Source of the DNA: an uncultured Gammaproteobacteria bacterium
Lineage (GTDB): Bacteria > Pseudomonadota > Gammaproteobacteria > Steroidobacterales > Steroidobacteraceae
Length of the DNA stretch: 64,000 bases
Reading direction: 5' to 3'
Assembly: GCA_963817195.1 (NCBI GenBank)
Contig: CAWFNJ010000002.1
Location: 1,511-65,510 of the forward strand
In this document: piece by piece, positions 18,919-46,640 of the stretch
Layout of the letters: each line of letters begins with the position of its first letter
Position numbering within the stretch: position 1 is the stretch's first letter
The notes under the pieces: model-generated
Told to the model about the DNA's origin: nothing
Seen by the model: the letters and a program-made list of their open reading frames with translations, nothing else
Database searches by the model: none
Translations under genes and position numbers: made by a program

Positions 18919-19640
18919 CCCAGGCGGCGCCGGGCGTCGACGCGCGTTCGAGATCGGCCGGGCTGTCCACTTCGGTCCATCCCGTCGCCGGAATCTCCTG
19001 CGTGTAGACCGACCCGCTCTTCGCGAGAGCGTCGATCAGCGACAGGTACCACTGCGACAGCGCCGCCGGCGTGCGCAGCGCCCGGTCCATCGCGTCGCGG
19101 AAGAGGCGCGCGCCCTCGCCGCGGAAGGTCATCATCCCGATCGATTCCGCGTTCACCTCGTCGCGCGGGAGCTTCTTGCCCACCTGCAGCAGCCGATCGC
19201 CGTCGCGGATCACTTTCATGTCGTCGTCGTCGTATTGATCCTTGCGGCTGACGGCGAGCGTGATCGGGTGCTCCGGGCGCCGCGAGGAGCCGCTCGAGCA
19301 CCGCGGCGTCGAACAGCGTGTCGCCGTTCAGGAGCAGGAACTCGCGCTCCATTTCGCCGCGCGCGACCCAGCAGCTGACGAGGTTGTCGGTGATCGTGTA
19401 GAACGGGTTGTAGAGGGTGCGGATGCGCCGCGGGCCGTAGCGTTCGGCGAGCCCCGCTTCGACGAGCTCGGCGCCGAAGCCGACCACGACCGTGATGTCG
19501 TCGACGCCGCAGCGCAAGAGCGCGTCGATCTGCCGGCCGATGAGCGGGCGCCCCAGCACCGGAAGCATGCATTTCGGCGCGCGCTCGGTGAGCGGCAGCA
19601 ATCGCTTGCCTTGACCGGCGCTCAGGATAATCGCTTTCAC
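18905..19640 (-). CDS. sugar/alcohol-phosphate nucleotidyl(cytidylyl)transferase, LicC/IPCT-like; one frameshift
   Basis: GTG start at 19640. ORF 18753..19694 has 'KAIILSAGQGKRLLPLTERAPKCMLPVLGRPLI..DITVVVGF..LLLNGDTLFD'. ORF 18905..19219 has 'ESIGMMTFRGEG..QWYLSLID..TGWTEVDSPADLE'. Its 3' end overlaps the convergent gene by 14 bp. Confidence 0.65.
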
Positions 19641-19896: not shown

Positions 19897-21310
19897 ATGA
19901 CCGACCCCGTTCCCACGAACTCCGACGCCCGAAGCCGAGGCCTTGCGGCCGACGCGGGTCACGACCGCGGCAAACGCGCTGGTGGATCGCCGTCGCCGTG
20001 GTCGGCATCGCCGCCATCGGCGCGGCGATCTGGTACGCAAGCGGGAAGCCGCTCACCGCCACGGCGACCGGGCGCCTCGCGTGGCGCCATGGGCGAGAAA
20101 GGCGGCAAGGGCGATGCCCCGCGCACGACGCCCGTCGTCGCCGCGCCGGTCCGCCAAGGCACGCTCGACGTCTACCTGTTCGCGCTCGGCACGGTGACGC
20201 CGCTCAACGCCGTCGTCGTCAGGAGCCGCGTCGACGGGCAGCTGATGAAGGTCGCCTTCGAGGAGGGCCAGATGGTGAAGGCGGGCGATCTCCTCGCCCA
20301 GATCGATCCGCGTCCGTTCGAGGTGCAGCTCACGCTCGCCAACGGACAGACGCGCGCGCGACCAGGCGCTGCTCGAGAACGCGCGCGTCGACGTCGAGCG
20401 CTATCGCACGCTGCTCGCGCAGGATTCGATCTCCAAGCAGCAGGTCGACACGCAGGAGTCGCTGGTGCGCCAGTACGAGGCCGCGGTGCAGGCCGACCAG
20501 GGCAACATCGACAACGCGAAGCTGCAGCTCACGTACACGCGCGTCGTCGCGCCGATCGGCGGCCGCGTCGGCCTGCGCCAGGTGGACCCGGGCAACATCG
20601 TGCGCGCCGCGGACGCGAACGGCATCGTCGTGATCACGCAGCTGTCGCCGATCGGCGTGGTGTTCCCCATTCCCGAGGACACGCTGCCGCGCGTGATGAA
20701 GCGGCTGCAGCGCGGGCGATCGCATCCCGGTCGACGCCTTCGACCGCGCGCAGAAGGAAAAGCTCGGCAGCGGGCCGGCTGCTGACCGCCGACAACCAGA
20801 TCGACACCACGACGGGCACGATCAAGCTCAAGGCCGAATTCGCCAACGCCGACGGCGTGCTCTTCGCGAACCAGTTCGTCAACGTGCGCATGCCGGTCGA
20901 GACGCGGCCGAACGCCACGCTCGTGCCGACGGCGGCGATTCAGCGCGGCGTCGCGGGAACGTTCGTCTACGTCGTCAAGGACGACAAGACGGTGACGGTG
21001 ACGCCGGTGCAGATCGGCTCGACGCAGGGCGAGGTCGACGTCGATCGAAAGCGGCGTCGCTCCGGGCGCGATGGTCGTCGTCGACGGCGCCGACCGGCTG
21101 CGCGAAGGCGCGAAGGTCGAGGTCGTCACGCGCGATGCGCCCGTTCCGGCGACGCCGCGAGGCGGCGCGGCGCGGGAAGCGCGGCGGCAAGGACGGCGGC
21201 AAGGCGGCGGCAAGCGGCGGCAAGGATGGCGCGGGCCACGCGGGAGCGCAGACTCGAAGCGACTGCGCACGCGCCGCGATGGCGACCGCTCGCGCCGAAA
21301 GTCGCTCTGA
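19897..21310 (+). CDS. mdtA: RND efflux periplasmic adaptor (MdtA/MuxA family), frameshifted
   Basis: ORF 19834..21462 has 'VVAAPVRQGTLDVYLFALGTVTPLNAVVVRSRVDGQLMKVAFEEGQMVKAGDLLAQIDPRPFEVQL' and 'ADNQIDTTTGTIKLKAEFANADGVLFANQFVNVRM'. ORF 20465..20785 has 'LQLTYTRVVAPIGGRVGLRQVDPGNIV'. Confidence 0.8.
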
Positions 21311-21316
21311 CTCCCG

Positions 21317-24300
21317 ATGAATCCGTCACGCCTGTTCATCCTCCGGCCGGTGGCGACCTCGCTGCTGATGGTCGCGATCCTGCTCGTCGGGCATCGTCGC
21401 GTACCGCGTGCTGCCGCTGTCGGCGCTGCCCAAGTTCGACTATCCGACGATCCAGGTCGTGACGCTGTATCCGGGCGCGAGCCCCGACGTGATCACCTCG
21501 TCGATCACCGCGCCGCTCGAGCGCCAGTTCGGCCAGATGCCGGGCCTGAACCAGATGTCGTCGACGAGCTCCGGCGGCGCTTCGGTCATCACGCTGCAGT
21601 TCAGCCTCGAGCTGCCGCTCGACGTCGCGGAGCAGGAAGTGCAGGCCGCGATCAACGCCGCCGGCAACTTCCTGCCGACGCGACCTGCCGCAGCCGCCGA
21701 TCTACAACAAGGTCAATCCGGCCGACACGCCGATCGTGACGCTGGCGCTGACGCTCGACGCACGATGCCGCTGCCGAAGATCCAGGATCTCGCCGACACG
21801 CGGCTCGCGCACGAAGATCTCGCAGCTCGCCGGCGTCGGGCTCGTCAGCATCAGCGGCGGCCAGCGGCCGGCGGTGCGCATCCAGGCCAATCCGAAGGCG
21901 CTCGCCGCGTACGACCTGTCGCTCGACGACCTGCGCACCGCGATCGCCAACGCCAACGCGAATCAGGCCAAGGGCAGCTTCGACGGCCCGACGCGCGCGT
22001 CGACGATCGACGCCAACGACCAGCTCAAGTCGGCCGACGAATATCAAGTCGATGATCGTCGCCTACCGCAACGGCGCGCCGGTGCGGCTCGTCGACGTCG
22101 CCGACGTCATCGACGGCGCCGAGAACACGCGCCTCGCGGCGTGGGCGAACGACTCGGCCGGCGGTCATCGTCAACATCCAGCGCCAGCCGGGCGCGAACG
22201 TCATCGAGGTGGTCGACCGCATCAAGCGCCTGCTGCCGCAGCTTCAGGCGTCGCTGCCGGCCGCGGTCGACGTCACGATGCTGACCGACCGCACCGTGAC
22301 GATCCGCGCGTCGGTGCGCGACGTGCAGTTCGAGCTGCTGCTCGCCGTCGCGCTCGTGGTGATGATCATCTTCGTGTTCCTGCGCAACGTGCCGGCGACC
22401 GTCATCCCGAGCGTGGCCGTGCCGCTGTCGCTGATCGGCACGTTCGCGGTGATGTACCTCGCCGGCTTCTCGATCAACAACCTGACGCTGATGGCGCTGA
22501 CCATCGCCACGGGCTTCGTCGTCGACGACGCCATCGTGATGATCGAGAACATCTCGCGCTACATCGAGAAGGGCGAGTCGCCGCTCGAGGCGGCGTTGAA
22601 GGGCGCGGAGCAGATCGGCTTCACCATCATCTCGCTGACGGTGTCGCTCATCGCCGTGCTGATCCCGCTGCTGTTCATGGGCGACGTCGTCGGCCGGCTG
22701 TTCCGCGAGTTCGCGATCACGCTCGCGGTCGCCATCCTGCTGTCCGCCGTGGTCTCGCTGACGCTGACGCCGATGATGTGCGCGCGCCTCCTGCGCCACG
22801 TCCCGGTGCGCGAGCAGGGACGCTTCTTCCGCAAGAGCGGCGAGTGGTTCGACCGCGTGATCGCCGGCTACGCGCGCATGCTGACCTGGGTGCTCGACCG
22901 CCAGGGCGCGACGCTGCTCGTCGCGCTCGCCACGCTGGCGCTCACCATCGTGCTGTACATCGTGATCCCCAAGGGCTTCTTCCCGGTCCAGGACACCGGC
23001 GCGATCCAGGGCATCTCGGAAGCCTCGCCGACGATCTCGTTCGCCGCGATGGCCGAGCGCCAGCAGGCGCTCGCGAAGGTGATCCTGCAGGACCCCGCGG
23101 TGGAGAGCCTGTCGTCGTTCATCGGCGTCGACGGCACACAATCCGACGCTGAACAGCGGCCGCTTCCTGATCAACCTGAAGCCGCTCGTCGCAACGCGAG
23201 CGGCAGCGCCACCGACGTCATCCGGCGCCTGCAGGAGTCGCTCGCCGGCGTCGAAGGCATCGCGCTCTACATGCAGCCGGTGCAGGACCTGACCATCGAG
23301 GACAAGGTGAGCCGCACGCAATACCAGTTCTCGGTGGAGGACGCGAACGCGGACGAGCTCGCGCACTGGGTGCCGAAGCTCGTCGAGCGGCTGCGCCAGG
23401 ATCCGCGGCTCGCGGACGTCGCGAGCGACCAGCAGGAAGGCGGGCTGCAGGCGTACGTCGAGATCGACCGCGCGGCGGCGAGCCGCTTCGGCATCACGCC
23501 GGCGATGATCGACAGCGCGCTGTACAACGCTTTCGGCCAGCGCCTCGTCTCGACGATCTTCACGCAGACCAACCAGTATCGCGTCGTGCTCGAGGTCGGG
23601 CCGGAGTTCCGCAAGGGCCCGGCCGCGCTCGACGGCATCTACGTCAATGCGCCGAACGCCAGCGCCGCGGCCGCAGCCGCCGGCGCGGGCGTCGGGCACC
23701 GCCGCGCCAGCGGCCGAGCGCCGCGACGCAGCAGGTCCCGCTGTCGGCGCTCGCGCGGGTCGTCGAGCGCACGGCGCCGCTCGTCGTCAGCCGCATCGGG
23801 CAGTTTCCGGCGGCCACGATTTCCTTCAACCTGGCGCACGGCGCATCGCTGGGCGACGCCGTCAAGGCCATCGAGGCGGCGCAGCGCGACATCGGCATGC
23901 CGGCGAGCGCGCAGGTGAAGCTCCAGGGCGCGGCGCTCGCGTTCCGCGCCTCGCTCGCCAACCAGCTGCTGGCTGATCCTGGCGGCGATCGTCACCGTCT
24001 ACATCGTGCTGGGCGTGCTGTACGAGAGCTACATCCACCCCATCACGATCCTGTCCACGCTGCCGTCGGCGGGCGTCGGCGCGCTGCTCGCGCTGCTGCT
24101 CACGCGGCAACGATCTCGACGTGATCGCCATCATCGGCATCATCCTGCTGATCGGCATCGTGAAGAAGAACGCGATCATGATGATCGACTTCGCGATCGA
24201 CGCCGAGCGCGAGCGCAAGCTCGCGCCGCGCGACGCGATCTTCGAGGCGTCGCTGCTGCGCTTCCGGCCGATCATGATGACGACGATGGCGGCGCTGCTG

Positions 24301-24516
24301 GGCGCGCTGCCGCTGATGATCGGCTGGGGCGTGGGCTCCGAGCTCCGCCATCCGCTCGGCATCACGATGGTCGGCGGCCTGATCGTGAGCCAGGCGCTGA
24401 CGCTGTTCACCACGCCGGTCATCTATCTCGCGTTCGACCGGCTCGAGCGCCGGATGAAGGCGCGGCGCGAGCGCTGCGCGCGGCGCGGGCCGCGGCGCTC
24501 GGGCAGCGGGCCATGA
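21317..24516 (+). CDS. mdtB: RND permease (MdtB/MuxB family), heavily frameshifted
   Basis: It starts '[25 protein letters not shown]'. The core in ORF 22209..23918 has '[28 protein letters not shown]'. The C-terminus in ORF 24121..24516 has '[42 protein letters not shown]'. The gene is readable only by hopping across at least 8 listed ORFs. Confidence 0.85.
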
Positions 24517-24522
24517 GCGACG

Positions 24523-27500
24523 ATGAACATCTCGTCGCCCTTCATCGACCGCCCGGTCGCGACGACGCTGCTCACGATCGGCGCGGTGCTCGCCGGCGCG
24601 GTGGCGTTCCGCCTGCTTCCGGTGTCGCCGCTGCCGCGGGTCGACCTGCCGACGATCTCGGTGTCGGCGTCGCTGCCGGGCGCGAGTCCCGAGACGATGG
24701 CGGCGACGGTCGCGATGCCGCTCGAGCGCTCGCTCGGGCCTCATCGCCGGCGTGACGGAAATGACGTCGACGAGCGCGCTCGGCTCGACGCGCATCGTGC
24801 TGCAGTTCGACCTCGACCGCGACATCAACGGCGCCGCGCGCGACGTGCAGGCCGCGATCAACGCGGCGCGGAGCTCGCTGCCGACGGGCCTGCAACGGCA
24901 ACCCGTCGTATCGCAAGGTCAATCCGGCCGATGCGCCGATCATGATCCTGGCGCTCACGTCGGAGACGATGACGCAGGGCCAGATGTACGACGCCGCGTC
25001 GACGATCATCGCGCAGAAGCTCTCGCAGATCGACGGCGTCGGCCAGGTCCAGGTCGGCGGCAGCTCGCTTCCCGCCGTGCGCGTCGAGATCAATCCGCAG
25101 GCGCTCTACAAGTACGGCATCGGCTTCGAGGACGTGCGCGCGGCGCTCGCCGCGGCCAATGCCAATCGGCCCAAAGGCATGGTGGACGACGGCACGCGCA
25201 CCTGGCAGATCGACGCCAACGACCAGGCGAAGACCGCCGCGCGAATACCTGCCGCTGATCGTCTCCTATCGCAACGGCGCCGCCGGTGCGCATCACCGAC
25301 GTCGCGGAAGTCGTCGACTCGGTCCAGGACCTGCGCAACGCGGGATCGTCCAACGGCAAGCCGTCGGTGCTCGTGATCGTCAGCCGGCAGCCCAACGCCA
25401 ACATCATCGAGACCGTCGACCGCGTGCATGGAGCTCGTGCCCGCGCTGCGCGCGTCGATTCCGGCGCGCCATCGATCTGCAGGTGATGATGGAGCGCACG
25501 ACGACGATCCGCGCGTCGCTGCGCGACGCCGGGCGCACGCTCGCGTTCTCGGTCGCGCTGGTCGTGCTGGTCGTGTTCCTGTTCCTGCGCCACGGCCGCG
25601 CGACACTGATCCCGAGCGTCGCGGTGCCGGTGTCGCTGACGGTCACCTTCGGCGTCATGTATCTCTTCGGCTACAGCCTCGACAACCTGTCGCTGATGGC
25701 GCTCACCATCGCGACCGGATTCGTGGTCGACGACGCGATCGTCGTGCTCGAGAACGTCTCGCGCCATATCGAGGCCGGCATGCCGCCGATGGAGGCGGCG
25801 CGCGTCGGCGCCGGCGAGGTCGGCTTCACCGTGCTCGCGATGACGCTCTCGCTGGTCGCGGTGTTCATCCCGCTCCTGCTGATGGGCGGCTTCGTGGGCC
25901 GCTTCTTCCGCGAGTTCGCGGTGACGCTGTCGGCGGCGATCCTGGTCTCGCTCGTCGTCTCGCTCACCACGACGCCGATGATGTGCTCGCGGCTGCTGCT
26001 GCCGGCGGGCGAGCGGCGCACGGGCCGGTTCCACCGCGTGGAGCGAGCGCGCGTTCGTCGGCGATGCTCGAGGCTTACGGGCGCACGCTCTCGCTGGGCG
26101 CTCGATCACGCCCCGCTCACCGTGCTGATGCTGCTCGCGACCGTGGCGCTCAATGTCTTTCTCTACGTGATCGTCCCGAAGGGCTTCTTCCCGCAGCAGG
26201 ACACGGGGCAGCTCATCGGCCGCATCCAGGCCGACCAGAGCATCTCGTTCCAGGCGATGCGGCAGAAGCTCGCCGACTTCATCGCGATCGTGCGCGCGGA
26301 CCCGGCGGTGGCGAACGTCGTCGGCTTCACCGGCGGCGCAGCAGCGCAACACGGGCTCGATGTTCGTCACGCTGAAGCCGCTGTCCGAGCGCGAGGACAG
26401 CGCCGACCAGATCGTCGCGCGGCTGCGCCGCGAGCTCGCGCGCGAGCCCGGCGCCAATCTCTTCCTGCACGCCGGTGCAGGATATCCGCGTCGGCGGCCG
26501 GCAGAGCAACGCGACCTACCAGTACACGATCCAGGCCGACGACCTCGCCGACCTCGCGACGTGGGAGCCGCGCATCCGCGCTCGCGCTGTCGCAGCTCCC
26601 CGAGCTCGTCGACGTCAACACCGACCAGCAGAACAAGGGGCTGTCGACGTCGCTCGTGATCGATCGCGACGCCGCGGCGCGTCTCGGCGTGACGCCGCGG
26701 ACGATCGATGCGACGCTCAACGATGCGTTCGCGCAGCGCCAGGTCTCGACGATCTACTCGCCGCGCAACCAGTACTACGTGGTGATGGAAGCCGCGCCGG
26801 AATACTGGCAATCCGCCGGATGCGCTCAACCAGATGCACGTCAGCGCGCAGGGCGGCGCGCAGGTGCCGCTGTCGATGTTCGCGCGGCATACGGCGACCG
26901 AGACCTCGCTCGCGGTCAATCACCAGTCGCAGTTCGTCGCTTCCACCATTTCGTTCAACCTCGCCGGAAGGCGTGTCGCTGTCGCAGGCGACCGCAGGCG
27001 ATCGACGCACGCGCTCGCCCGCATCGGCGTGCCGACGACGGTGCGCGGCAGCTTCCAGGGATCCGCGCGCGCGTTCCGGGCCGCGCTCGAGACCCAGCCC
27101 ATGCTGATCCTCGCGGCGCTCCTGACGCTCTACATCGTGCTGGGCGTGCTGTACGAGAGCTTCGTTCATCCGCTCACGATCCTGTCGACGCTGCCCTCGG
27201 CCGGCGTCGGCGCGCTGCGTCGCGCTGATGCTGTTCAAGACCGACTTCAGCATCATCGCGCTGATCGGCGTGATCATGCTGATCGGCATCGTGCAGAAGA
27301 ACGCGATCATGATGATCGACTTCGCGCTCGACGACCGAGCGCGGCAGCAACGCGAGCGCGCGCGACGCGATCTTCGAGGCGTGCCTGCTGCGCTTCCGGC
27401 CGATCCTGATGACGACGCTCTCGGCGTTGCTCGCCGCGATCCCGCTCGCGCTCGGCACGGGGCGACGGCGCGGAGCTGCGCCAGCCGCTCGGCATCGCGA

Positions 27501-27660
27501 TCGGCGGAGGACTCATCCTGAGCCAGCTCCTGACGCTGTACACGACGCCGATCGTCTATCTCTACCTCGACCGCCTGAGCGACCGGGCCGCGAGCCTGCG
27601 GCGCACGGCGCTGGCGGCGCGCGCGTCTCGCACGCACGTCCGGCGGACGCGCCGCAATGA
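24523..27660 (+). CDS. mdtC: RND permease (MdtC/MuxC family), heavily frameshifted
   Basis: ORF 24523.. has '[25 protein letters not shown]'. ORF 25159..27228 has '[28 protein letters not shown]'. ORF 27228.. has '[24 protein letters not shown]'. The manual tail is '[30 protein letters not shown]'. Confidence 0.85.
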
Positions 27661-29047
27661 CGCGCGCCCGCTCCTTCGTGCTGCGCATCGTGCCGCCATC
27701 GTCGCCGTGGTCGCGCGCGTCGCGCTGCCGCGTCGTGCACCGTCGGACCCGACTACGTCCGGCCCGCCGCCGATGTCCCGCCCGCGTACAAGGAAGCGAA
27801 GGATGGCAGCGTCGCGGCCGCGCCGAGCGCGATTCCCGCCGGCGCCTGGTGGGAGATCTTCGGCGATCCCGAGCTCGAACGCGCTGGAATCGCAGGTCGT
27901 GCTCAACAGCCAGACGATTCGCGCCGCCGAAGCGCGCGTCGCGCCAGGCGCAAGCGCTGATCGACGTCGCCCGCGCGCCCGGGCTTCCCGACGCTCAACG
28001 CCGCCAGCACCAACAAGAAAGTCGGGCTCACCGCCGGCTGGGAGCTCGATCTGTGGGGCCGCATCCGGCGCAGCGTCGAAGCGAGCGAGGCCGGCGCCGA
28101 AGCGAGCGCCGACGACCTCGCGGCGGCGACGCTCTCGATGCAGGCGCAGGTCGCGCAGAACTACTTCCTGCTGCGCGTCCAGGACGCGGAAATCCGGCTG
28201 CTGCAGGACAGCGTCGCGCGCTACGAGCGATCGCTGCAGCTCACGCGAAACCAGTACGACGCCGGCGTCGCATCGCGCGGCGACGTCGTGCAGGCCGAGG
28301 CGCAGCTCAAGTCGACGCGCACGCAGACGCTCGACGGCGCAGTTGAACAGGGCGCAGCTCGAGCACGCGATCGCCGTCCTCGATCGGCAAGGCGCCCGCC
28401 GACTTGAGCATCGCCGCCACGACCGCCGACATGCGCGATCCCGGCGGTGCCTCCGGCGCTGCCTTCCGAATTGCTCGATCCGGCGGCCGGACATCGCCGC
28501 CGCCGAACGCCGGATGGCGGCGGCCAACGCGCAGATCGGCGTCGCGCAGGCCGACGTTCTATCCGTCGGCGCGTCTCTTCGCCGGCGGCGGCATCGACAT
28601 CAGCTTCGCCGGCGGCATCGCGCTCGCCCAGTACATTCTCGACGGCGGGTTGCGCGAGGCGACGAAGGCGCAGGCCACGGCAGCCTACGAGGAGACCGAT
28701 CGCCAATTACCGGCAGACGGTGCTCGTCGGCGCTCCGCGACGTGGAGGACAATCTCGTCGCCGTGCGCATTCTCGAGGAGGAGGCCGGCGTGCAGGCCGC
28801 GGCGGTCAAGGCGTCGCGCGAATCGGTGACGATCACGAACAACCAGTACCGCGCCGGCATCGTCACGTATCTGGCCGTCGTCGTCGTGCAGGCCGCGGCG
28901 CTCGTCAACGAGCGCGCCGACCTCGCCATCGAGGGCCGGCGCCTCGTCGCCAGCGTGAACCTGATCAAGGCGTTGGGGGGCGGCTGGCAGGCGCCCGCCG
29001 ACCGACACAGGCGAGCGCCGCGAAGTAGGTACGAACGCGGCGGATAG
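27657..29047 (+). CDS. RND efflux outer-membrane lipoprotein (NodT/OpmB family), frameshifted
   Basis: Manual N-terminus is '[19 protein letters not shown]...[14 protein letters not shown]'. ORF 28138.. has '[56 protein letters not shown]'. ORF 27707..29047 ends '[17 protein letters not shown]'. Confidence 0.75.
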
Positions 29048-29074: not shown

Positions 29075-30039
29075 TCAGGCCGGCGCCGCCGCGAGCGCCT
29101 GACGGAGGCGCCGCCCGTCTTCCGGAACGAAGCGGCCGCGGTCGAGCGAGTAGGCCCGCACCGCGACGCGCAAGCTTCCAGCCGTCTTCGCTGCGGCGGA
29201 TCCGATAGAGGTGATACGTCGCGTAGCGGTCGACGTGCTTGCCGATCGCCGAAGCCGAAGGGACGCCGATGGCGAGGTTCCGGCCGCGCGCGCCGTCGAG
29301 ATAGGCGGCCGCGGAAAAGTGCGCGTGGCCGTGCAGCGTGAGCTCCGCGCCGCGGCGCGCGAGCACGTCGCGCAGCGCCGCGCCGTCGCGCAGCGACTTG
29401 CGCCAGCGCACCGTGTGCGACGCCGGCGGATGGTGCAAGAGCACGATGCGGAACAAGCCGTCGCGCCCGGTTTGCTCGAGCAGCGCGTCGAGCCGCGCCA
29501 ACTGCTTCTCGCCCAGGCGCCCCGTGGCGAGAAAGGGCGCCGACGGCAGCGCCGTCGACAACCCGATCAGCGCGACGTGCCGGCGAATGCGCAACGTCGG
29601 AAACGCATCGCCGCCCTCGCCTCGAGCTGCCGCATCGTCGCTGCGCACCGCGGCATCGTCGCCGCGCACAGCGGCGTCGTCGCCGCACATGTACGCCGAC
29701 CATTGCGCGAACGTGTCCTGCCACGATTCGCGGACGTAGGCGTCGTGATTGCCGGGAACGACGGTGATGGTTTCCGGCGGGCCCAGCCGCCGCGAGCCAC
29801 GCCGCCGCCTGCCGGAACTCCTGCGGCAGCCCGATGTGCGTGAGATCGCCGGTCACGGCGATGTGATCGAAGTGCTCGGAGTGGAGGTCCGCGCGCAGCG
29901 CATCGAGCACGTCGGTGCGGTGCTCGCGGCGGCGCCGATGGCGCCACGACAGGTAGCCAAGGAGCCGCTTGCCGATGAGCGCGCGCGGGCGCACGCCCTC
30001 GAGCGACGAGAGATGCAGATCGGACAAGTGCGCCAGCAC
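29075..30039 (-). CDS. calcineurin-like metallophosphoesterase, frameshifted
   Basis: ORF 28600..30039 has 'MLAHLSDLHLS' and 'IAVTGDLTHIG'. ORF 28965..29690 has 'IVLLHHPP' and 'LTLHGHAHF'. The C-terminus and stop (29075-29077) were reconstructed manually: 'WKLRVAVRAYSLDRGRFVPEDGRRLRQALAAAPA*'. Confidence 0.7.
29630..29692. repeat. imperfect 21-bp tandem repeat x3 inside the metallophosphoesterase gene (encodes GDDAAVR-GDDAAVR-SDDAAAR)
   Basis: The units are 'ccgcatcgtcgctgcgcaccg', 'cggcatcgtcgccgcgcacag' and 'cggcgtcgtcgccgcacatgt'. The minus-strand translation in ORF 28965..29690 is 'CGDDAAVRGDDAAVRSDDAAARGEGG'. Confidence 0.7.
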
Positions 30040-30260
30040 GAAGTCGGCGTCCGAGCGCCGAACGACGAGCGCGACGCGAAAGCGCGCTCGTCCGCGTCGA
30101 TCGTGAGCTCAACGGGTCGCATGCGGTTAGTATATGATGCCGCGCTTCGGCGCCTCTTGAACCGCGCCCCTCCGCCTTCGTCGCGCAGCGAAGCGCGACC
30201 TCCAGCGGCGCCTCCGCCGCTCGAACCCCGCAGGCCCGAAAGATCGACATCGACGACAAC

Positions 30261-31474
30261 ATGGTTGCAGTGGTCGTGGGCGACAGCCCCATCCGCCTGT
30301 GGGGCCTTACGCCCGCGGAACGGATCGAACGCCAGTTGCGAGCCGAACGCATCCCCGTGTCCCGCGACGGTCTCGCCGCCCCGCCGGCGACGGGAACGCT
30401 CCTGATGCTGCGCGGCGACTACCTCTACGATGCCCGCGTGATCCGCGGGCTCGCCAAAGTCCGCAACGCGATCCTCGAAGTGGAGGTCGACGGGCGCTCG
30501 CTGCCGGTGGCGGCGCATGTCGGCGTGAACGACGCACCGGTCGCCCGCGCGTCGCTCGACGGCGCACCGGATCGACGCGACGGCGTCGGGCATCGCCAAG
30601 GTCGGTCTCGCCGACGTCGCGCAGGGCTACGAAGCGGGGTTGAAGAAGCTCGATCGGCCCTTCGTTCTTCCGGTCACCGCGGAGCGGCGGCCCGCGCTCG
30701 AGCAGCTCACGTTCTCCGGCGCGTACAAGGGCGTCACCGATCTCGTCACCAAATGGCTGTGGCCCGTTCCGGCACAGTGGGTCACGCGCTGGTGCGTGCG
30801 GATGGGAATGACTGCCAACCAGGTGACGGCCGCGAGCCTCGTGCTCGTCATCGTCGCGGGCGTGCTGTTCGCGCGCGGCGAGTTCGCCTGGGGCCTTGTC
30901 GCCGGCTGGATCATGACGTTTCTCGACACCGTCGACGGCAAGCTCGCGCGCGTGACGATCACGTCGACCCAGTTCGGCAACGTGTTCGATCACGGGATCG
31001 ATCTCATCCACCCTCCGCTCTGGTACTTCGCCTGGGGCGTGGGACTCGCGCTCGATCCGCCGGCGATCGGCGGAGTCCCGCTCGCCTGGATCTACTGGGC
31101 AATCCTCGCCGGCTACGTCGGCGGGCGTCTTTGCGAAGGCGCGTTCCAGCTCTTCATCGCGCGCTTCTCGATCTTCACGTGGCGGCCGTTCGACTCGTGG
31201 TTCCGGCTGGTCGCGGCGCGACGCAATCCGAACATGATCATGCTCACCGTGAGCCTGGCGCTCGGGCGCCCGGATCTGGGCCTGCTCGCCGTTGCAGTAT
31301 GGACGGTCGCGTCGATGGTGCTGCTGCTGGCGCGGCTCCTGCTGGCCGCGCTCGAGAAGCACAACCGGGTGACGATCCGCTCGTGGCTCTCGGAGATCGG
31401 CGAGCACGATGGACGAGCATGCGCTGACGGCACGGGTGTTCGCCCACGCCGCTCCCACCGCGCGCAAGGCGTAA
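30261..31474 (+). CDS. CDP-alcohol phosphatidyltransferase-family membrane enzyme with ~125-aa soluble N-terminal extension, frameshifted
   Basis: ORF 30261.. gives the N-terminus 'MVAVVVGDSPIRLWGLTPAERIERQL'. ORF 30640.. has 'FLDTVDGKLARVTITSTQFGNVFDHGIDLIHP', the full D-x2-D-G-x2-A-R-x8-G-x3-D-x3-D motif (from nt 30925), plus multiple TM helices. Stop inferred at 31472-31474 after a terminal frame change. Confidence 0.75.
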
Positions 31475-31487
31475 CGGCGGCGGCGAC

Positions 31488-32499
31488 ATGCCGCCGGCAG
31501 ACGTGTCGACGCCCGATTCCGCAACGCGCCTCGCGCGCCTCTCGATCGGCATCCTGCGCAACCCGGGAAGCGGCGCGAACCTCCGCGCGCGCGAAAGCGA
31601 TGGAGCGACGCGCTCGCCGCGCATCGCGAACCTTCCCTGCCTCGAGGTGCACGATCCCGCTGAGCGTCGAGGCCGCGTTGCGCGACCTCGCGGGTCGCGG
31701 CGTCGACACGATCGCCGTCAGTGGCGGCGACGGCACCGTCAGCGCCGTCCTCAATACGATCTTCGCGCGCAACCCGTTCCCGCGGCTGCCGCTTCTCGCG
31801 GTGCTGCGCGGCGGCACGGCCAACATGACCGCGCGCGACGTCGGCCTCTCCGGTCGCCAGCATCGCGCGCTCTCGTCGCTGATCGAGGCGGCCTCGCGCG
31901 GCGGCGAAGGGCTGACGGTCACCAAACGCCCGGTCATTCGCATCGATCCCGGCGGCGGACGCGACACGATTCACGGGATGTATTTCGCGGCTGCGGCGAT
32001 CTCCCAGGGCATCGACTACTGCAAGCGCAACGTGCACAAGATGGGCCTGCGCGGCGAAATCGGTCCCGCCGTCACGATGGCGCGCTTCGTCGTCGCGATG
32101 GCGCGAGGCGAGCGCGAGATCGTCGCCCCCGTGCCGATGACCGTCGCCGTCGACGATGCGCCCGCCGCGACCTTCGATTGCGAGGTCGTCCACGTGACCA
32201 CGCTCGAGCAGCTGGTGCTGGGACTGCGGCCGTACTGGGGCGCGGAAGCGGCGCCGTTGCACTACGCGAGCGTGCGCGCCCATCCGCGGCACTGGCTGCG
32301 CGCGCTGCCCGGCCTCCTGCGCGGGCGGCCCAATCGCTTCGTCACGGAAGCGAACGGATACGAAAGCCGCAATGCGCATCGCCTGTCGATCGGGCTCGAC
32401 ACGCCGTTCTTCGTCGACGGCGAGCTCTTTTCCCCGACACCCGGCACGCCACTGTTACTCACCGATGGCGGGACGGCGGACTTCGTGACTCTGCGATGA
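31488..32499 (+). CDS. lipid kinase of the DAG-kinase catalytic-domain family (sphingosine/ceramide kinase-like), one frameshift
   Basis: ORF 31488.. has 'LSIGILRNPGSGANL'. The frame of ORF 30640..32499 has 'GVDTIAVSGGDGTVSAVLN' (GGDGT) and 'LAVLRGGTANMTARD'. It ends 'DGGTADFVTLR*'. It starts 13 nt after the preceding gene. Confidence 0.75.
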
Positions 32500-33427
32500 A
32501 TTCGCCGCTCGAAGAGGTGATCACGAGCGAGGTCGCCGCGCGCGCGCCGGACCCGGTGGTCGCGCTCGGCGAGAGCCTGCGCCAGCGCTTCGGGGCACAT
32601 GCGCTGGCAGTGCTGTTCTATGGCTCCATCCGCCGCTCGCGCAACGACGAGGGCGGCATCGTCGATCTCTATGTGCTGGTCGACCGCTACCGCGACGCTT
32701 ACTCGAGCGTCCTCCCCGCCTTCGCGAACCAGCTGCTGGCTCCCAACGTCTACTATCTCGAGGCGCCGTTCGCGGGACGCACCGTGCGCGCGAAGTACGC
32801 GGTCTTGTCTCTCGATCATTTCGAGCGCGGCATCGCGCACTGGTTTCATCCGTATCTTTGGGCGCGCTTCGCGCAGCCGTGTGGGCTGTTGTACGCCGCG
32901 GACGAGACCGTGCGTGCGCGCGTGGTCGGCGCGCTCGGGAGAGCGCTCACCCGCTTCGCGGCGAGAGTGCTGCCGCGCCTGCCCGACGAATTCGACGCCG
33001 AAGTGCTGTGGACACGCGGCCTGCTTCTCACCTACGCCGCCGAGTTGCGCTCGGAGCGTCCCGCCAGGATCGTCGCGCTCTACAACGAGTCGGCGAGCGG
33101 AGTTGCGCGCGCGAACCGAGGCGCTCGCGCGCAGCGAGGGCTGGAAGCTCGCAGCCGCAGGCCGCTATCGCAATCCGAGCACGTCGTCCGATCGCGTCGG
33201 CTCCGCCTGCAGTTGGGCCGCCTGCATCGTGCAGGGAAAGCTCTTGAGCGTGCTGCGGCTCCTGAAGGCCTCGTTCACGTTCGACGGCGGATTGCCGTAC
33301 ATCGTCTGGAAAATCGAGCGCCACTCCGGGGTGAAAGTGGCGATCACGCCGTTCATGCGCCGCTCACCCGCGCCTGGGCGCGATCGGCGCCCTCTGGCGA
33401 ACGTGGCGCCTCGGCGGGTTTCGCTAG
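32496..33427 (+). CDS. nucleotidyltransferase-fold protein, Tam41/Mmp37-like (candidate CTP:lipid-phosphate cytidylyltransferase), frameshifted
   Basis: Its ATG overlaps the kinase stop (ATGA at 32496-32499). It has 'AVLFYGSIRRSRNDEGGIVDLYVLVD' and 'NVYYLEAPFAGRTVRAKYAVLSLDHFERGIAHWFHPYLWARFAQP'. From memory these resemble Tam41 blocks. The tail and stop (33425-33427) were reconstructed manually. Confidence 0.4.
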
Positions 33428-33480
33428 CGCGGCGCCACCATCCTCGTGCCAGGCTTTCGCGGGGCGTTCGGAGGCCTCGC

Positions 33481-35593
33481 CTACTTCGCGCCGGGACCGA
33501 TATTGCGAGCCAGGAATTTCTCGACCCGGGTCCAGAAATCGATCCGCGTTTCCAGCTTGCGCCAGCCGTGGCCCTCATCCGGGTATTCGACCCATTCGAC
33601 ATCCGGATTGGTTCGCGTCACCGCATCCCTGAAGGCCTTGCCGTGCTCGATCGGAACGCGCCGGTCGATGCCGCCGTAGGCGAGCAGCAGCGGCCGGCGC
33701 ACCTTCGCCGCCTGCTCCACCGGCGACGTGTCCGCAAGTTGCCGGGCATCGGCGAACCGATCGCCGATCAATTGCGGCATCTCGTAGCCTCGCGCCTCGT
33801 CGGAGATGTCGCTCCAGGCGATGTCGTACATGAGACCGATGTCGGTTACGCCGACCCAGTCGATTCCGCAGCGGTAGAGATCGTGGTGCCGGACGAGCCC
33901 CATCAGCGCGGCGTAGCCGCCGTAGCTCCCGCCTGCGATGCACACGCGCCCGGCATCGACCCAGCCTGAACCGATCGCCCAAAGCAGCCGCATCCGCGAT
34001 GTCCTCCTGCATCGCCCGCCCCCATTGCTTCCACCCGGCCCGAAAGTGCGGGAAGCCGAATCCCTGGCTGCCGCGGAACTCGGGTTCGATCACGACGTAA
34101 CCGCGCGAGGCGAGAAACTGTGCGTCCGCTTCCCACTGCCAATGCGTTCCTCGCACCCACGGCCCGCCATGCACTATCACGACCGCCGGCCGGGGCGCGC
34201 TCGCCTTGCCGGGCGGATGCGTCACGAGCACAGGGATCGACATGCCATCGCGCGCCGTGAACCGGCGATATTCACGCTTGCCCATGTCGTGCGGCTTGAT
34301 CCACGGCCTCGACGCTGCGATCGAGATCAGCAGGCTCGTGTCGCGATCGTAGACGTAGTAGTGGGGCGGCTGCCGGTCCGACGAAGCGGTGACGAGCACC
34401 TGGGGCACGCCGATGCAGCGCCGACATTCGATGCGATTGACGGTTTGCGGCAGCGCGGCGTCCACTGCCTCCTGGGTTGCTCGCATCACGGGGTCGAGCC
34501 ACATCGTGCGCAGCACGTCGGTCTCGTAGTGCACGCCGACCAGACGCCGCACGTCGTGGTCGTACACCACCGAGCCGCGGAAGTCGTAACCGTCGAGGGC
34601 GAGCATCGGTTCCGGCGAGAGCTTTCGCGTCCTGCCATCGACGACATGGAGTGCCGCCGTGCCGTCCCCACGCTGCGCGAGCGCCAGCAACTGGCCGTCG
34701 AACCCCATCCAGTACGGATCGGCGTACCGGTCCCCGAAGTAGTCCGCGTCCTGCCACTTGTCCCATCCGGCACCGGAAGCCGACTTTGCATAGACGCCCA
34801 ACCGACCTCGATCCCGTGTGGTCACGATCACCGGGCGGCCCTCGGGATCCACGACCCAGCGGGTCACTCGCTTCGGCACGCCTTCGCTCAGGTTCTTCGT
34901 CGCGCCGGTTACCGTGTCGAGGCGCGCAAGCCGGGTATCGACGACATCGCCGTTGTTGGCGATCGTCTGACCCTGCACCAGCACGTCGTTCGAGCCGTCC
35001 CCGGGCACGCTGTGCAACCTCCACATCCAGGGCAGCGGCGCGTAGCGGCTGAGCGGAGCGCGCACATTGGCGAAGCTCACGAGGGGATCCACGAGGCGGC
35101 GGAATTGGGTTCCGTCGCGATTGATGGCCCACAGGCCCGGCGCGAGCGATCTGCCGAGGATGGTTTGCCGCTCGGGCGCATCGAACACGAGACGCTCGTC
35201 GTTCACCCATTGGTAATTCGACACGTTGGCATCGTCGACTCCCGCGACGACCCTGGGCGGGTCGAGCTCTTCGACGTCGAAGACCGCGAGTTGGGCGTAT
35301 CCCGCCGGGGTGGCCACCGATACCGCCAGGTGACGACCGCTGGGCGAAAGCACGGGCTTTGCCATCACCGGCGGCCGGAAGAAGGCCTCGAGCGGAACGA
35401 AAGCGGGCGTCGCGTCGCCGGCCGGCTCCGCTCGCGACGGGCCGGCGGCGAAGGCCAGGACCCAGCACGCGAGAACAGCGATCGGGCGCAACGTCCGCGT
35501 CCGGCGGCGCGGAAGCCATGGAGAGGACGGTTGTGGCATAGGTCGAAGGACTCTGCCCCACTTCCGTGTGGACCTCAAGGGGCGGCGCAACAC
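33481..35593 (-). CDS. S9-family serine peptidase (prolyl oligopeptidase/dipeptidyl aminopeptidase type), secreted; frameshifted near the C-terminal domain
   Basis: ORF 33575..35593 holds a signal peptide '[18 protein letters not shown]' and a beta-propeller region. ORF 33481..33993 has '[12 protein letters not shown]' (GxSxGG), '[12 protein letters not shown]' and 'EYPDEGHGW'. The start may be the Met at 35539. Confidence 0.75.
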
Positions 35594-35607: not shown

Positions 35608-36045
35608 ATGAACGCCACGATCACCAAGTTCGGATACCCCGGATCGCTGCTGCGCGAATACCGGAGCTGGGTCGTCCTGCTGCGCCCGGCGCAGGTGACG
35701 CTCGGCAGCCTCGTTCTTGCTTGCAAGGAAGACGCGACTGCGCTGGGCGCGGTCTCGGCGGAGGCGTACTCGGAGCTCGCCGTCGCCATCGCGGATCTCG
35801 AACGCGCGCTCTCCACGACGTTCGACCACCAGAAGATCAACTACCTCGCGCTGATGATGGTCGATCCGCACGTCCACTTCCACGTGATCCCGCGCTACTC
35901 GGGCAGCCGCGAGTTCGAGGGCTCGACGTTCGGCGATGCCACGTGGCCGAAGCCGCCGGACGTCACGAGCGCGCTCGCGCTCTCGCCGGCGCAGATGAGC
36001 GCGCTGCACGCGAAGCTTCGCGCCGCGTGGCCGCAGCGTGCGGCC
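35608..36045 (+). CDS. HIT-family protein; natural stop not identifiable (ORF runs on to 36351)
   Basis: ORF 35608..36351 has '[21 protein letters not shown]' (histidine-triad motif) within a ~140-aa HIT-like domain. The remainder of the ORF is Arg/Ala-rich and lies antisense to the convergent dehydrogenase. Confidence 0.7.
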
Positions 36046-36079: not shown

Positions 36080-37032
36080 CTACGCCAAGCTCGGGAATCA
36101 GCGTCGGCAGCGGCTTCTTCGGCGAACCACGCGTCGAGGTTCGCCTTGCACAGGTCGCCCATCGCCTTGCGCGTCTCGTGCGTCGCGCTGCCGACGTGCG
36201 GCAGCAGCACGACGTTGTCCATCGCCAGCAGCGCCGCGGAATGTGCGGCTCGTCGGCGAACACGTCGAGACCCGCGCGCCTTGATCGTGCCCGCCTGCGA
36301 GCGCCGCGACGAGCGCCGGCTCGTCGACGATCGAGCCGCGCGCGATGTTGACGATCGTGCCCTTCTTGCCGAGCGCCGCGAGCACGTCGGCGTTGACGAT
36401 GTTCTTCGTCGCCGCGCCGCCCGGACACGCGACGACCAGGAAGTCCGACTCCGCCGCGAGCGCCTTCAGGTCCGGCACGAATCGATAGGCGACGTCCTGC
36501 GGCTTGCGGCCGGTGTAGGCGACCTTCATGCCCATCGCCGCGACGCGCTGCGCGATCGCCTTGCCGATGCGGCCGAGCCCGAGGATGCCGACGCGTCTTG
36601 CCGCCGAGCTTGGTCGTGAGCTCGGGGCCGCGCTTCTCCCATTCGCCCGCGTGCACGAAGCGATTGAGCGCGCACGAAGCCGCGCCCGGTCATCAGGACC
36701 AGCGCCGACGGCGACGTCGGCGACGTCGTCGGTCAGCACGTCGGGCGTGTTGGTCACCTTGATGCCGCGCTTGCGGCAGTAGTCGACCGGCACGCCGTCG
36801 TAGCCGACGCCGAACACCGAGATGATCTCGAGCTTCGGCAGCGCGTCGAGCAGCGTCGTCGGCGTGACCGTGCCGCCGCCCTGCACCAGGCCGCGGATGC
36901 GCGCGCCCTCGCGCGGCGAGCAGCGCCGGCTTGTCGGCCGCCTGCGACGTAGTCGTGGCAGCGGTAGTCGGCCTTCAGCGGCTCGTAGAGGAACGGCGGC
37001 AGCGGCGCGGTGACGATGATGTCGGGCTGGGC
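36080..37032 (-). CDS. D-isomer-specific 2-hydroxyacid dehydrogenase (glyoxylate/hydroxypyruvate reductase-like), frameshifted
   Basis: Manual start at 37032 gives 'MPSP(D)[19 protein letters not shown]'. ORF 36098..37075 has '[29 protein letters not shown]' and '[12 protein letters not shown]'. ORF 35575..36222 has '[19 protein letters not shown]'. The 3' end is approximate. Confidence 0.7.
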
Positions 37033-41254: not shown

Positions 41255-42560
41255 CACCGCGTAACCGCGCCGCCGCCGTGCGGGCGATCTCGCGCAGTGC
41301 CCGTGCGTCCTCGCGTTGCGGCAGAAGGATTTTCCCGACGGCGAAGCCGAACCGGCGCCGGTAGGCGATGACAATGACCACCACGGCGGCGATTTGCGCC
41401 AGCGCGTAGGCGAGCCCGGCACCGGCGAGCCCAAGGGGCGGCGTCAAGAGCCAGAACGCGACGGCCGCCACCAAACTGCCGGCGGCGAAGGCGGCAATGC
41501 CCCAGCGGGCGAGGCCCTGCGCGGAGAGGCAAGGGTAGAGCATGGTCGTGTAGGAATTGGCGAGTGCACCGATCATCACCAGGCGGAAGGCACCGGGCTC
41601 GGCGGCGTAGTCCTCCCCGAGGACGAGCCCGAGCAGGGGTCGGGCGAGCATCAATGCCACCAGCGCCACGACCGCCATCAGTGCCGTGACCAGCCGGGCG
41701 ATGCGGATGGCGTCCAGGGCGGAGGCCTTGATGTCGGTCGCACGCACGCCGTAGCTGAAGATGACGATCCCGACGGCGGTCGCCACCTCGACCAGGATCT
41801 CGCCCAGGCGCTGCGAGCCGAAATAGATGCCCAGGGCGTCCTCGCCGAGCTGCCAGCTCACGATCCAGAAACCGATGCGGCCGAGCAGGATCAGGAGCAG
41901 GATGGCGATCCACAGCTCGCCGCCGTAGCGGAACATGCGGGCGACCAATGCGGGCTGGAACAGCGTGGCCGGACGGATGGCGCCGCTGACCTGCCAAAGG
42001 AGGTAGACGGCGGCCGCGACATGGGCCGCGAGCAGCACCCAGATGGCGGTGGCGAGGTCGAGCAGGCCGAGCGCCCAGAGGCCGATCGTGCCGGCCAGGA
42101 CCACGGCACGCGAGATCAGCTCGGAGCGGTTCAGGCGGCCGAGGTCGCCGCGCCCGAGAAACACGCCCTGGCCAATACGCAGGCAGAGCATGGGTGCCAC
42201 GTTGAGCGCCGCCACCAGCGCCAGGGGGCCATAGCCGGCGACGTAGCCGCCGGCCTCGAGCATCAGCCAGCAGGCGAGCACGCCGGCGGCCCCCAGGAGC
42301 AGCCAGAGGGCCATCAGGTGGGTGGTCACGGCAGGGTCGGCCGCCGGCTCCTGGCCGATCACCCAGGCACCCGACTGGCGGAGCCCCAGATCGAAGGCGA
42401 TCGCCAGCACCAGGGCGGTCGACATGACGTAGCCGTAGAAGCCGAACTCGCCGACGGTGAGGCTGCGCGCCAGCAGGACGAACACGGCGAAGTTGGCTGC
42501 GCGCATCACCAGGCGGGTGAGCAGCACCCACACCGAGTCGAGCAGCATTGCCGAGTTCAT
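41250..42560 (-). CDS. polysaccharide/oligosaccharide flippase (Wzx/MOP-superfamily membrane protein); intact
   Basis: ORF 41250..42806, with the likely start at 42560 ('MNSAMLLDSVWVLLTRLVMRAANFAVFVLLARSL'). It has about 12 predicted TM helices and 'FGFYGYVMS', in the Wzx-like layout. Confidence 0.7.
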   Translation of the reverse strand: MNSAMLLDSVWVLLTRLVMRAANFAVFVLLARSLTVGEFGFYGYVMSTALVLAIAFDLGLRQSGAWVIGQEPAADPAVTTHLMALWLLLGAAGVLACWLMLEAGGYVAGYGPLALVAALNVAPMLCLRIGQGVFLGRGDLGRLNRSELISRAVVLAGTIGLWALGLLDLATAIWVLLAAHVAAAVYLLWQVSGAIRPATLFQPALVARMFRYGGELWIAILLLILLGRIGFWIVSWQLGEDALGIYFGSQRLGEILVEVATAVGIVIFSYGVRATDIKASALDAIRIARLVTALMAVVALVALMLARPLLGLVLGEDYAAEPGAFRLVMIGALANSYTTMLYPCLSAQGLARWGIAAFAAGSLVAAVAFWLLTPPLGLAGAGLAYALAQIAAVVVIVIAYRRRFGFAVGKILLPQREDARALREIARTAAARLRGD

Positions 42561-46004: not shown

Positions 46005-46011
46005 GCACCGC

Positions 46012-46640
46012 ATGCTCCAGAACCTCAAGCGCGCCTGGTGGCGCCGCCAGCTCAAGGAGCAGGCCTTTGCCTTCCTGGCCGACGCCTACGACGGCGACGA
46101 GTTGGTGAGCATCGACTGCGAGACCACCGGCCTGGACGTGAAGAGGGACCAGATCCTCTCGGTCGGGCGCGATCAAGGTGAAGGGCGATGCCATCCTTAC
46201 CAGCGAGCGCCTGGATTTCTTGGTCCGGCCGAAGGAGCCGGTCTCCGAGCGGACCATCCTGATCCACCATATCCGCCCCGTCGACCTGGAGACTGCCGTG
46301 CCGGTCGACGAGGCGATCCGCCGCGTGCTGGAGTTCGTCGGCCCACGGCCGCTGGTCGGCTACTTCCTCGAGTTCGACGTCGGCATGCTCAACAAGTATG
46401 TCCGCCCGCTGATCGGGGCCGGCGCTGCCCAACGCCCAGATCGAGGTGTCGCGGCTCTACTACGACTGGCGCGCCGCCCAGGTGCCGCCGGGCGGCAACA
46501 TCGACCTGCGCTTCGAGACCATCCGGCAGCGGCTGGACCTGCCGCGCCGCGCCGCCCACGACGCCTTCAACGATGCGCTGCTGACCGCGATGATGTACCT
46601 GCGACTCAAGGGCGGCTGGCGACCCGATCCGCCGGAGTGA
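46012..46640 (+). CDS. DEDDh 3'-5' exonuclease (DnaQ/PolIII-epsilon-like), frameshifted
   Basis: ORF 46012.. has 'LVSIDCETTGLD' (Exo I). ORF 46178.. has 'HHIRPVDLE..LVGYFLEFDVGML' (Exo II). ORF 46446..46640 has 'AAHDAFNDALLTAMMYLRL' (Exo III, H-x4-D). It starts 8 nt after the DUF294 gene. Confidence 0.7.

Follow-up and report, generated by a model that had tools for sequence, protein, structure and literature searches.

A run of three + strand genes on contig CAWFNJ010000002.1 of an uncultured gammaproteobacterium (Steroidobacteraceae; assembly GCA_963817195.1) raises the question of which head group these genes would build, and on which lipid. The genes lie at 30261-33427 of a 64,000-nt stretch of the contig, referred to here as the window, and were delimited by three-frame translation of 30100-33750 together with the list of open reading frames (ORFs). 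An earlier reading made from the letters alone (the sequence-only reading) had named them a CDP-alcohol phosphotransferase (gene 1), a lipid kinase (gene 2) and a Tam41-like nucleotidyltransferase (gene 3). All three family assignments hold (PF01066, PF00781, Tam41-like), and the triad is very probably the orthologue set of Caulobacter cpgA-cpgB-cpgC, building an anionic phospho-head group on ceramide. Coordinates of these and the neighbouring genes are given in Table 1.

The layout of the triad was recovered as it had been described from the sequence: gene 1 ends in a TAA stop at 31472-31474, genes 1 and 2 are separated by the 13-nt spacer CGGCGGCGGCGAC (31475-31487), genes 2 and 3 overlap in ATGA (32496-32499), and all of the motifs quoted earlier are present in the three-frame translation. 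Each of the three genes is broken into more than one ORF. Comparison with intact homologues by tblastn placed five frame switches in total, at ~30576 and ~31411 in gene 1, at ~31665 in gene 2, and at ~33099 and ~33371 in gene 3. A codon-position G+C scan of the whole window (G+C ~70%) detected 64 frame junctions in ~49 kb of coding sequence, or ~1 per 770 coding nt, on both strands, and 48 of the 64 behave as one extra base. Since such switches span the whole window, the frame breaks in the triad are attributed to assembly indels and not to decay, and the organism itself probably has intact copies of the genes. The five switches in three genes would suit a decaying, non-functional pseudogene operon, a reading that is scarcely credible given that like switches occur in housekeeping-type genes throughout the window and that the frame-repaired genes contain no internal stops and are 70-82% identical to their homologues; repaired gene 3 has 309 aa, as do nearly all of the 120 homologues that match it best (best identity 82%). 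Programmed frameshifting was also rejected for the triad, the switches being window-wide. Frame switches every few hundred bases can be seen, for example, in 44278-48554 (+) and 55160-58977 (-). The window has the look of an assembly that is unpolished and rich in insertions, on which ORF-based annotation will fail. A promoter and terminator scan of 29900-33800 yielded nothing informative.

The profile searches proposed in the sequence-only reading were run on the three genes, with PF01066 and PF00781 scoring above their cut-offs and the Tam41 profile below its own. Gene 1 matches PF01066 (CDP-OH_P_transf) at 33.6 bits against a cut-off of 22 and contains, from nt 30925, DTVDGKLARVTITSTQFGNVFDHGID, which matches the complete D-x2-D-G-x2-A-R-x8-G-x3-D-x3-D signature. 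The protein consists of an N-terminal cytosolic domain and a catalytic domain with six transmembrane segments; its soluble N-terminal part comprises ~150-165 aa, longer than the ~125 aa first estimated. An AlphaFold model made with 50 homologues (predicted local distance difference test, pLDDT, 81) was compared with structures in the Protein Data Bank (PDB). The best fold was AF2299 of Archaeoglobus fulgidus, matched over the full length including the N-terminal cytosolic domain (E 2.6e-11; template modelling (TM) score 0.60/0.71), followed by the AfCTD-fused phosphatidylinositol-phosphate (PIP) synthases and IPCT-DIPPS. Gene 1 has the full-length two-domain fold and the complete motif in common with A. 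fulgidus AF2299 and IPCT-DIPPS (4o6m/4o6n/4q7c, 4mnd). It differs from them in that identity is 16-18%, the N-terminal domain has no recognisable cytidylyltransferase signature, the cytidylyltransferase (cpgD-like) being a separate gene, and the acceptor is presumed to be a sphingolipid. The donor used by DIPPS is soluble CDP-inositol, and we know of no established substrates for AF2299. The best NCBIfam matches of gene 1 are PIP synthases, below cut-off; the equivalogs for PIP and archaetidylinositol-phosphate synthases and for DIPPS were not reached (46.5/170, 41/180 and 20/580 bits).

In the cytosolic domain of CpgA-type proteins (30261 to ~30700 in the window), residues W14, R21, R24 and D57 are invariant. 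The domain folds like the N-terminal domain of AF2299 and gives weak matches to inositol-1-phosphate cytidylyltransferase. It may be a degenerate cytidylyltransferase, with the function moved to the separate cpgD gene.

Gene 2 matches PF00781 (DAGK_cat) at 51 bits against a cut-off of 23.6 and carries the motifs NPGSG and GGDGT; CxxxCxxC was not seen in the repaired protein. Published criteria define CpgB as a kinase of the DAGK/LCB5 type that has a GGDG motif and lacks CxxxCxxC (PMC10331486). Identity to the kinases of related betaproteobacterial loci is 69-72%. Against the named NCBIfam lipid-kinase models (YegS/DgkB/BmrU) all scores fell far below cut-off, the best being 28.8 bits against 284 for YegS, and matches to PDB sequences were at E 0.0045 or weaker.

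The resemblance of gene 3 to Tam41 noted in the sequence-only reading was borne out by comparison of family profiles and folds. Gene 3 carries LFYGS...DLYVLVD and KYAVLSLDHFERGIAHWFHPYLWARFAQP. Its match to PF09139 (Tam41_Mmp37) reached 19.1 bits (E 9e-4) against a cut-off of 24, and many of its close homologues have a precomputed PF09139 match marked 'weak'. More than 2292 homologues were found; the family forms 1168 clusters at 50% identity (E <= 1e-3), and 93 sequences from the cluster representatives were aligned. Searched alone against PDB sequences, gene 3 gave no match, and Tam41 was reached only with the 93-sequence profile, for which the best PDB sequence was Tam41 of S. pombe (6ig2, 6ig4; E 1.3e-5). 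The profile alignment pairs KYAV with KYGV, WARFAQP with AGRFQKP, and ELR..E with DIR....E. An AlphaFold model of gene 3 (pLDDT 94.2; predicted TM score, pTM, 0.90) matches the nucleotidyltransferase (NTase) plus winged-helix fold of Tam41/Mmp37: Tam41 structures, from S. pombe and a Firmicute, take the first five places among PDB folds (E 5e-9 to 9e-7, TM 0.52-0.61, probability 1.0), and the next family, the ANT(4') aminoglycoside nucleotidyltransferases, reaches a TM score of 0.29.

The CTP-binding residues of human TAMM41 are Lys109, Arg133 and Lys136 (PMC8935507). These align with K100, R124 and Q127 of the gene 3 family, each of which is invariant, and the invariant positions G43, S44-like and D57 align with the GS...D motif of Tam41; for Thr199 and Asn208 the alignment gave no corresponding position. 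Tam41 keeps one of the three classical acidic NTase residues (PMC11646218); in the gene 3 family, one Asp that follows the GS motif, D57, is invariant. In common with Tam41/TAMM41 and the Tam41 of Firmicutes (6ig2, 6ig4, 7ecd), gene 3 has the fold of NTase and helical domains, only one acidic NTase residue, the blocks KY(A/G)V and (A/G)RF in which Tam41 has its CTP-binding Lys and Arg, and a basic C-terminal helical tail. It differs from Tam41 in an identity of 14-16%, in the low TM and Pfam scores given above, in having Gln for the third CTP-binding Lys, and in its substrate, which by Caulobacter genetics is ceramide-1-phosphate for this family and phosphatidate for Tam41. A natural fusion was also observed: P0143, a metagenomic protein of 662 aa, joins an N-terminal CpgB-type kinase (NPMSG, AGDGT) to a CpgC-type Tam41-like domain (366-659).

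In Caulobacter crescentus, cpgABC (CCNA_01217-01219 / CC_1159-1161) is found with CC_1158, CC_1153 and cpgD (CC_1152), and the cluster makes ceramide phosphoglycerate (CPG) and ceramide diphosphoglycerate (CPG2). CC_1158 is described as a calcineurin-like phosphoesterase, CC_1159/CpgA as having PF01066 and an N-terminal cytoplasmic domain, CC_1160/CpgB as a ceramide kinase, CC_1161/CpgC as having the Tam41/Mmp37 InterPro domain (IPR015222), and CC_1162 as spt (PMC11324152 S1 Text). The families of CC_1158-CC_1161 occur in the same order in the window: Metallophos on the - strand, then PF01066, PF00781 and the Tam41-like gene. Linkage to spt, acpR, cerR, aasR and bCerS is likewise shared, as are the same two accessory nucleotidyltransferases (cpgD-like and CC_1153-like), 11 kb from the triad. 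In contrast to Caulobacter, the cluster in the window is split by a resistance-nodulation-division (RND) efflux operon, LptC2/F2/G2-like genes were not seen in the window, and an MsbA-like ATP-binding cassette (ABC) exporter, a sulfotransferase, a fatty-acid hydroxylase and a DUF2147 gene stand beside spt. The sequence-only reading had cited Caulobacter cpgABC as an analogy; it was right about the link and missed that the triad itself would be that operon. The distance of 12 kb that it had given between triad and ceramide genes is close to the roughly 11-14 kb now measured.

The best PDB sequence match of the cpgD-like gene is LicC, a CTP:phosphocholine cytidylyltransferase (E 7.6e-9); a 2026 preprint reports the same fold relation to LicC for CpgD. 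A search of the PDB for a deposited CpgD structure found none, LicC being the best match. The bCerS-like gene gave no Pfam or NCBIfam matches. Its homologues adjoin the CC_1153-like gene in 45 of the 80 loci described below, in the order of Neut_1100/1101 and CC_1154/1153.

Published and related loci share this organisation. Neut_1100-1106 of Nitrosomonas eutropha are the published orthologues of CC_1154/1153/1156/1155/1159/1160/1161, and its betaproteobacterial cpgA-cpgB-cpgC genes have the same order as in the window. In a Nitrosospira locus (L080), seven genes in a row follow the layout of Neut_1100-1106, with a cpgC product 45-46% identical to gene 3. In Nitrosomonadaceae loci, LptF/G-like permeases separate the CC_1153-like gene from cpgA and the phosphoesterase is missing, whereas in the window the phosphoesterase is present and the LptF/G pair absent. 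In two alphaproteobacterial loci (L060, L063) the order is cerS, CC_1153-like, cpgD, phosphoesterase, cpgA, cpgB, cpgC, spt, cerR, aasR; these are the genes of the published Caulobacter order, in a near but inexact match. The gene set, its link to ceramide, its beta-, gamma- and deltaproteobacterial spread and the idea of a ceramide activated by a nucleoside diphosphate (NDP) are all previously in print.

To survey the family, one genome per species was scanned with a 13-sequence gene 3 alignment, and linkage was counted in the 80 closest loci. Gene content was assigned by tblastn with the window proteins, and 37 of the 80 loci have full flanks of +-10 kb. Relatives of gene 3 occur in at least 589 genomes, and the sources of the 80 closest are Burkholderiales and further betaproteobacterial metagenome-assembled genomes, Nitrosospira, Nitrosovibrio, Nitrospirota, Desulfobacterota, Gamma- and Alphaproteobacteria, and Calditrichota. 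The arrangement of the triad is far beyond chance, because the kinase gene lies directly upstream of cpgC in 67 of the 80 loci and cpgA is present in 51. The phosphoesterase stands beside the cluster in 51, and bCerS-like, CC_1153-like and cpgD-like genes were found in 45, 45 and 37 loci, respectively. Two homologue contexts show the divergent Metallophos gene followed by CDP-OH_P_transf, DAGK_cat and the Tam41-like gene, and one of them adjoins spt, an acyl carrier protein, an NmrA/epimerase reductase and an AMP-binding enzyme. In 33 of the 37 full-flank loci, one or more ceramide-synthesis genes occur within 10 kb, so the triad is not found mainly in genomes lacking spt; together with the Spt equivalog match in the window, this bears out the proposed link between triad and ceramide.

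Linkage to ceramide genes also bears on a glycerophospholipid route apart from sphingolipids, in which a diacylglycerol (DAG) kinase would produce phosphatidate, a bacterial Tam41 would convert it to CDP-DAG, and a PIP- or phosphatidylglycerolphosphate (PGP)-synthase-like enzyme would use the product. This is the canonical logic of the three families; a Firmicute Tam41 makes CDP-DAG (PMC11646218), CpgB also phosphorylates DAG in vitro (PMC11324152 S1 Text), and PIP synthases are the best NCBIfam matches of gene 1. The route is nevertheless very improbable here: the NCBIfam scores are far under cut-off (46 against 170 bits for PIP synthase, 29 against 284 for YegS), gene 3 is so distant from Tam41 in identity and Pfam score, ceramide genes are linked in 33 of 37 full-flank loci, and the Caulobacter mutants alter sphingolipids, with ceramide-1-phosphate persisting in the cpgC mutant (PMC9393093). 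A CDP-DAG salvage pathway was rejected for the triad on the same evidence.

Across the 37 full-flank loci, cpgA and cpgD occur together in 22, cpgA alone in seven, cpgD alone in one and neither in seven (Fisher p = 0.002, without correction for phylogeny). A variant cluster consisting of phosphoesterase, cpgB and cpgC, often with bCerS-like and CC_1153-like genes, was observed in loci where cpgA and cpgD were not found within reach (L013-L017, L023-L025, L028, L029, L036, L040, L043, L075, L083). Its hosts are Syntrophobacterales, Desulfobacterales, Calditrichota and some Gamma- and Alphaproteobacteria, in which head-group assembly may go no further than a mono-phospho stage. On this pattern, the CC_1153-like enzyme goes with the cpgBC step and not with cpgA. 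Nitrospirota, including Nitrospira, have a compact cluster with the order cerS, CC_1153-like, cpgD, a gap, cpgA, cpgB, cpgC (L019-L022, L026, L039, L044, L056, L069-L074, L079, L081, L082), which suggests phosphosphingolipids in nitrite oxidisers.

The steps of the pathway can be ordered from Caulobacter genetics. Mutants in cpgB lack ceramide phosphate, CPG and CPG2, those in cpgC keep ceramide phosphate and lose both CPG and CPG2, and those in cpgA keep CPG and lose only CPG2 (PMC9393093, PMC11324152). CpgB is a ceramide kinase in vitro (PMC10331486). CTP and phosphoglycerate are converted by CpgD (CC_1152) to CDP-glycerate, which is proposed to serve CpgA as donor, and deletion of cpgD has the same phenotype as deletion of cpgA (PMC12275187). 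By analogy, ceramide would be supplied by the spt, acpR, cerR, aasR and bCerS-like genes of the window, and gene 2 (CpgB) would convert ceramide and ATP to ceramide-1-phosphate, as Caulobacter CpgB does in vitro. Gene 3 (CpgC) would act on ceramide-1-phosphate and, as in Caulobacter, would be needed for the first phosphoglycerate; the likeliest reaction for this step, the chemistry of which is deduced as a whole, would be CTP + ceramide-1-phosphate -> CDP-ceramide + pyrophosphate, and addition of glycerate would come next. The cpgD-like enzyme would form CDP-glycerate from CTP and 2-phosphoglycerate, as shown for Caulobacter CpgD, and gene 1 (CpgA), an AF2299/DIPPS-type enzyme, would transfer phosphoglycerate from CDP-glycerate onto CPG to give CPG2, in keeping with the genetics. 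The head group would thus most likely be phosphoglycerate (CPG) and diphosphoglycerate (CPG2).

A linear route had been drawn in the sequence-only reading, with gene 2 producing ceramide-1-phosphate, gene 3 producing CDP-ceramide, and gene 1 attaching the head group with CDP-ceramide as donor. Gene 3 has kept the Tam41 fold and the GS...D, Lys and Arg active-site residues, gene 1 is the sole CDP-alcohol phosphotransferase of the cluster, the three genes are translationally coupled, and an NDP-activated ceramide has been proposed (PMC11324152), all of which would suit such a route. It is unlikely, however, in view of the CPG kept by the Caulobacter cpgA mutant (PMC9393093), which gene 1 as a consumer of CDP-ceramide does not explain, and of the like phenotype of cpgD, whose product makes CDP-glycerate (PMC12275187). 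The fold search also placed gene 1 closest to AF2299 and DIPPS. Because cpgA and cpgD co-occur (both in 22 loci, cpgD alone in one) and clusters of phosphoesterase, cpgB and cpgC without cpgA are common, CpgA is taken to act with CpgD and not downstream of CpgC. Kennedy-type transfer of a CDP-alcohol onto ceramide, offered earlier as an alternative, comes closer to the present model of gene 1 if read as transfer from a soluble CDP-alcohol; the donor now proposed is CDP-glycerate.

For CpgC, nucleotidyl activation of ceramide-1-phosphate is the most economical reaction because the Tam41 fold and most nucleotide-site residues are kept, and the CpgB-CpgC fusion P0143 fits consecutive CpgB and CpgC steps. 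It is tentatively suggested, as a possibility somewhat short of probable, that members of the CpgC family, gene 3 among them, are CTP:ceramide-1-phosphate cytidylyltransferases making CDP-ceramide, the sphingolipid counterpart of CDP-DAG. This reading is consistent with the fold, the kept Lys, Arg and Asp, the kinase-CpgC fusion, and ceramide-1-phosphate as the genetic substrate. The sequence-only reading knew of no described CDP-activated ceramide. The term 'CDP-ceramide' matched no papers in the full-text library searched; an NDP-activated ceramide made by CC_1161 had been proposed in 2024 (PMC11324152), and a preprint of May 2026 still calls the CpgC mechanism unidentified.

Several points weigh against the identification of the triad with cpgABC or against the route built on it. 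Orthology to the Caulobacter proteins was drawn indirectly, from domain content, gene order and published intermediate orthologues, and the triad genes are frame-broken as sequenced. The six genomes compared by Olea-Ozuna et al. gave no CC_1158 orthologue beyond Caulobacter, and the phosphoesterase of the window is equated with CC_1158 by family and position alone. The RND efflux operon, 8-9 kb long, splits the cluster between the cpgD-like gene and the phosphoesterase-cpgABC unit; in a related locus (L001), cpgABC lies ~5 kb from spt without an RND operon between them. Position Q127 (~32874-32876) is an invariant Gln in 93 of 93 representatives where human TAMM41 has the CTP-binding Lys136, and may, judging from the alignment, mark a nucleotide choice, chemistry or phosphate-binding geometry differing from that of Tam41. 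The head group proposed for this organism is deduced from the genes, and with a sulfotransferase and a fatty-acid hydroxylase beside spt the final lipid could differ from CPG2.

Table 1 Positions of the triad and of other genes in the window
Feature	Position	Strand	Remarks
Gene 1, cpgA-like CDP-alcohol phosphotransferase	30261-31474	+	~403 aa after repair
Gene 2, cpgB-like DAGK-fold lipid (ceramide) kinase	31488-32499	+	~337 aa after repair
Gene 3, cpgC-like Tam41-fold nucleotidyltransferase	32496-33427	+	309 aa after repair
Divergent calcineurin-like metallophosphoesterase, CC_1158-like position	29099-30122	-	PF00149 40.5 bits after repair; 3-4 frame pieces (tblastn)
RND efflux operon	20134-29002	+	HlyD-type adaptor, two AcrB-type pumps, OEP outer-membrane factor
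cpgD-like nucleotidyltransferase	18995-19601 (N-terminus not delimited)	-	PF12804 (NTP_transf_3) 34.2 bits
CC_1153-like MobA/CofC-type nucleotidyltransferase	18133-18900	+	PF12804 50.6 bits
bCerS-like gene (putative bacterial ceramide synthase)	17127-18042	+	Position and conservation only
aasR	14644-16337	-	AMP-binding match
cerR	13598-14643	-	Epimerase match
acpR	13300-13544	-	PP-binding match
spt	12100-13299	-	NCBIfam NF047599, betaproteobacterial serine palmitoyltransferase equivalog, 611.5 bits against cut-off 500
MsbA-like ABC exporter	10419-12099	-	Homology to L001 gene with ABC_membrane and ABC_tran matches
Sulfotransfer_3-like gene, fatty-acid hydroxylase, DUF2147 gene	8170-10264	+	Sulfotransferase 25 bits, just below cut-off
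S9 prolyl-oligopeptidase-type hydrolase, frame-broken, convergent with gene 3	33481-35593	-	
HIT-domain protein	35608-36015	+	
D-isomer-specific 2-hydroxyacid dehydrogenase (glycerate/hydroxypyruvate reductase family)	36124-37029	-	2.7 kb downstream of gene 3
Polysacc_synt-type flippase	41307-42548	-	
Second, clearer sulfotransferase	62873-63720	+	Sulfotransfer_3 61.7 bits

Among the neighbouring genes, those for the first sulfotransferase, the fatty-acid hydroxylase and the DUF2147 protein adjoin the ABC-spt-acpR-cerR-aasR block, and in L001, too, members of these three families stand beside spt; hydroxylation or some other modification of the sphingolipid is possible. In the RND operon, the first AcrB-type pump was profile-tested and the second was recognised from its translation alone. 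The 2-hydroxyacid dehydrogenase could supply D-glycerate, yet its position is probably a coincidence, because the gene tables read for three related loci (L001-L003) list no 2-hydroxyacid dehydrogenase.

As an annotation result, the source organism is expected to produce anionic phosphosphingolipids like the CPG and CPG2 of Caulobacter, where such lipids support the outer membrane, enable cells to survive when lipid A is absent, and are inferred to be what polymyxin and colistin target. The idea of an NDP-activated ceramide was published earlier and does not originate from this window. Added by the analysis are the size of the family (1168 clusters, at least 589 species) and its reach to Nitrospirota, Desulfobacterota and Calditrichota; a confident Tam41-fold model of CpgC with most active-site residues kept, together with the natural CpgB-CpgC fusion; and the finding that cpgA tracks cpgD, whereas cpgB-cpgC occurs without either. 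These results sharpen the question of how CpgC acts on ceramide-1-phosphate, which is a matter of the family rather than of this locus and is now easy to test. If the cytidylyltransferase reading is true, the enzyme would be at work in more than 589 species of bacteria, Nitrospirota and Desulfobacterota among them, and would make CDP-ceramide, a nucleotide-activated sphingolipid never observed.

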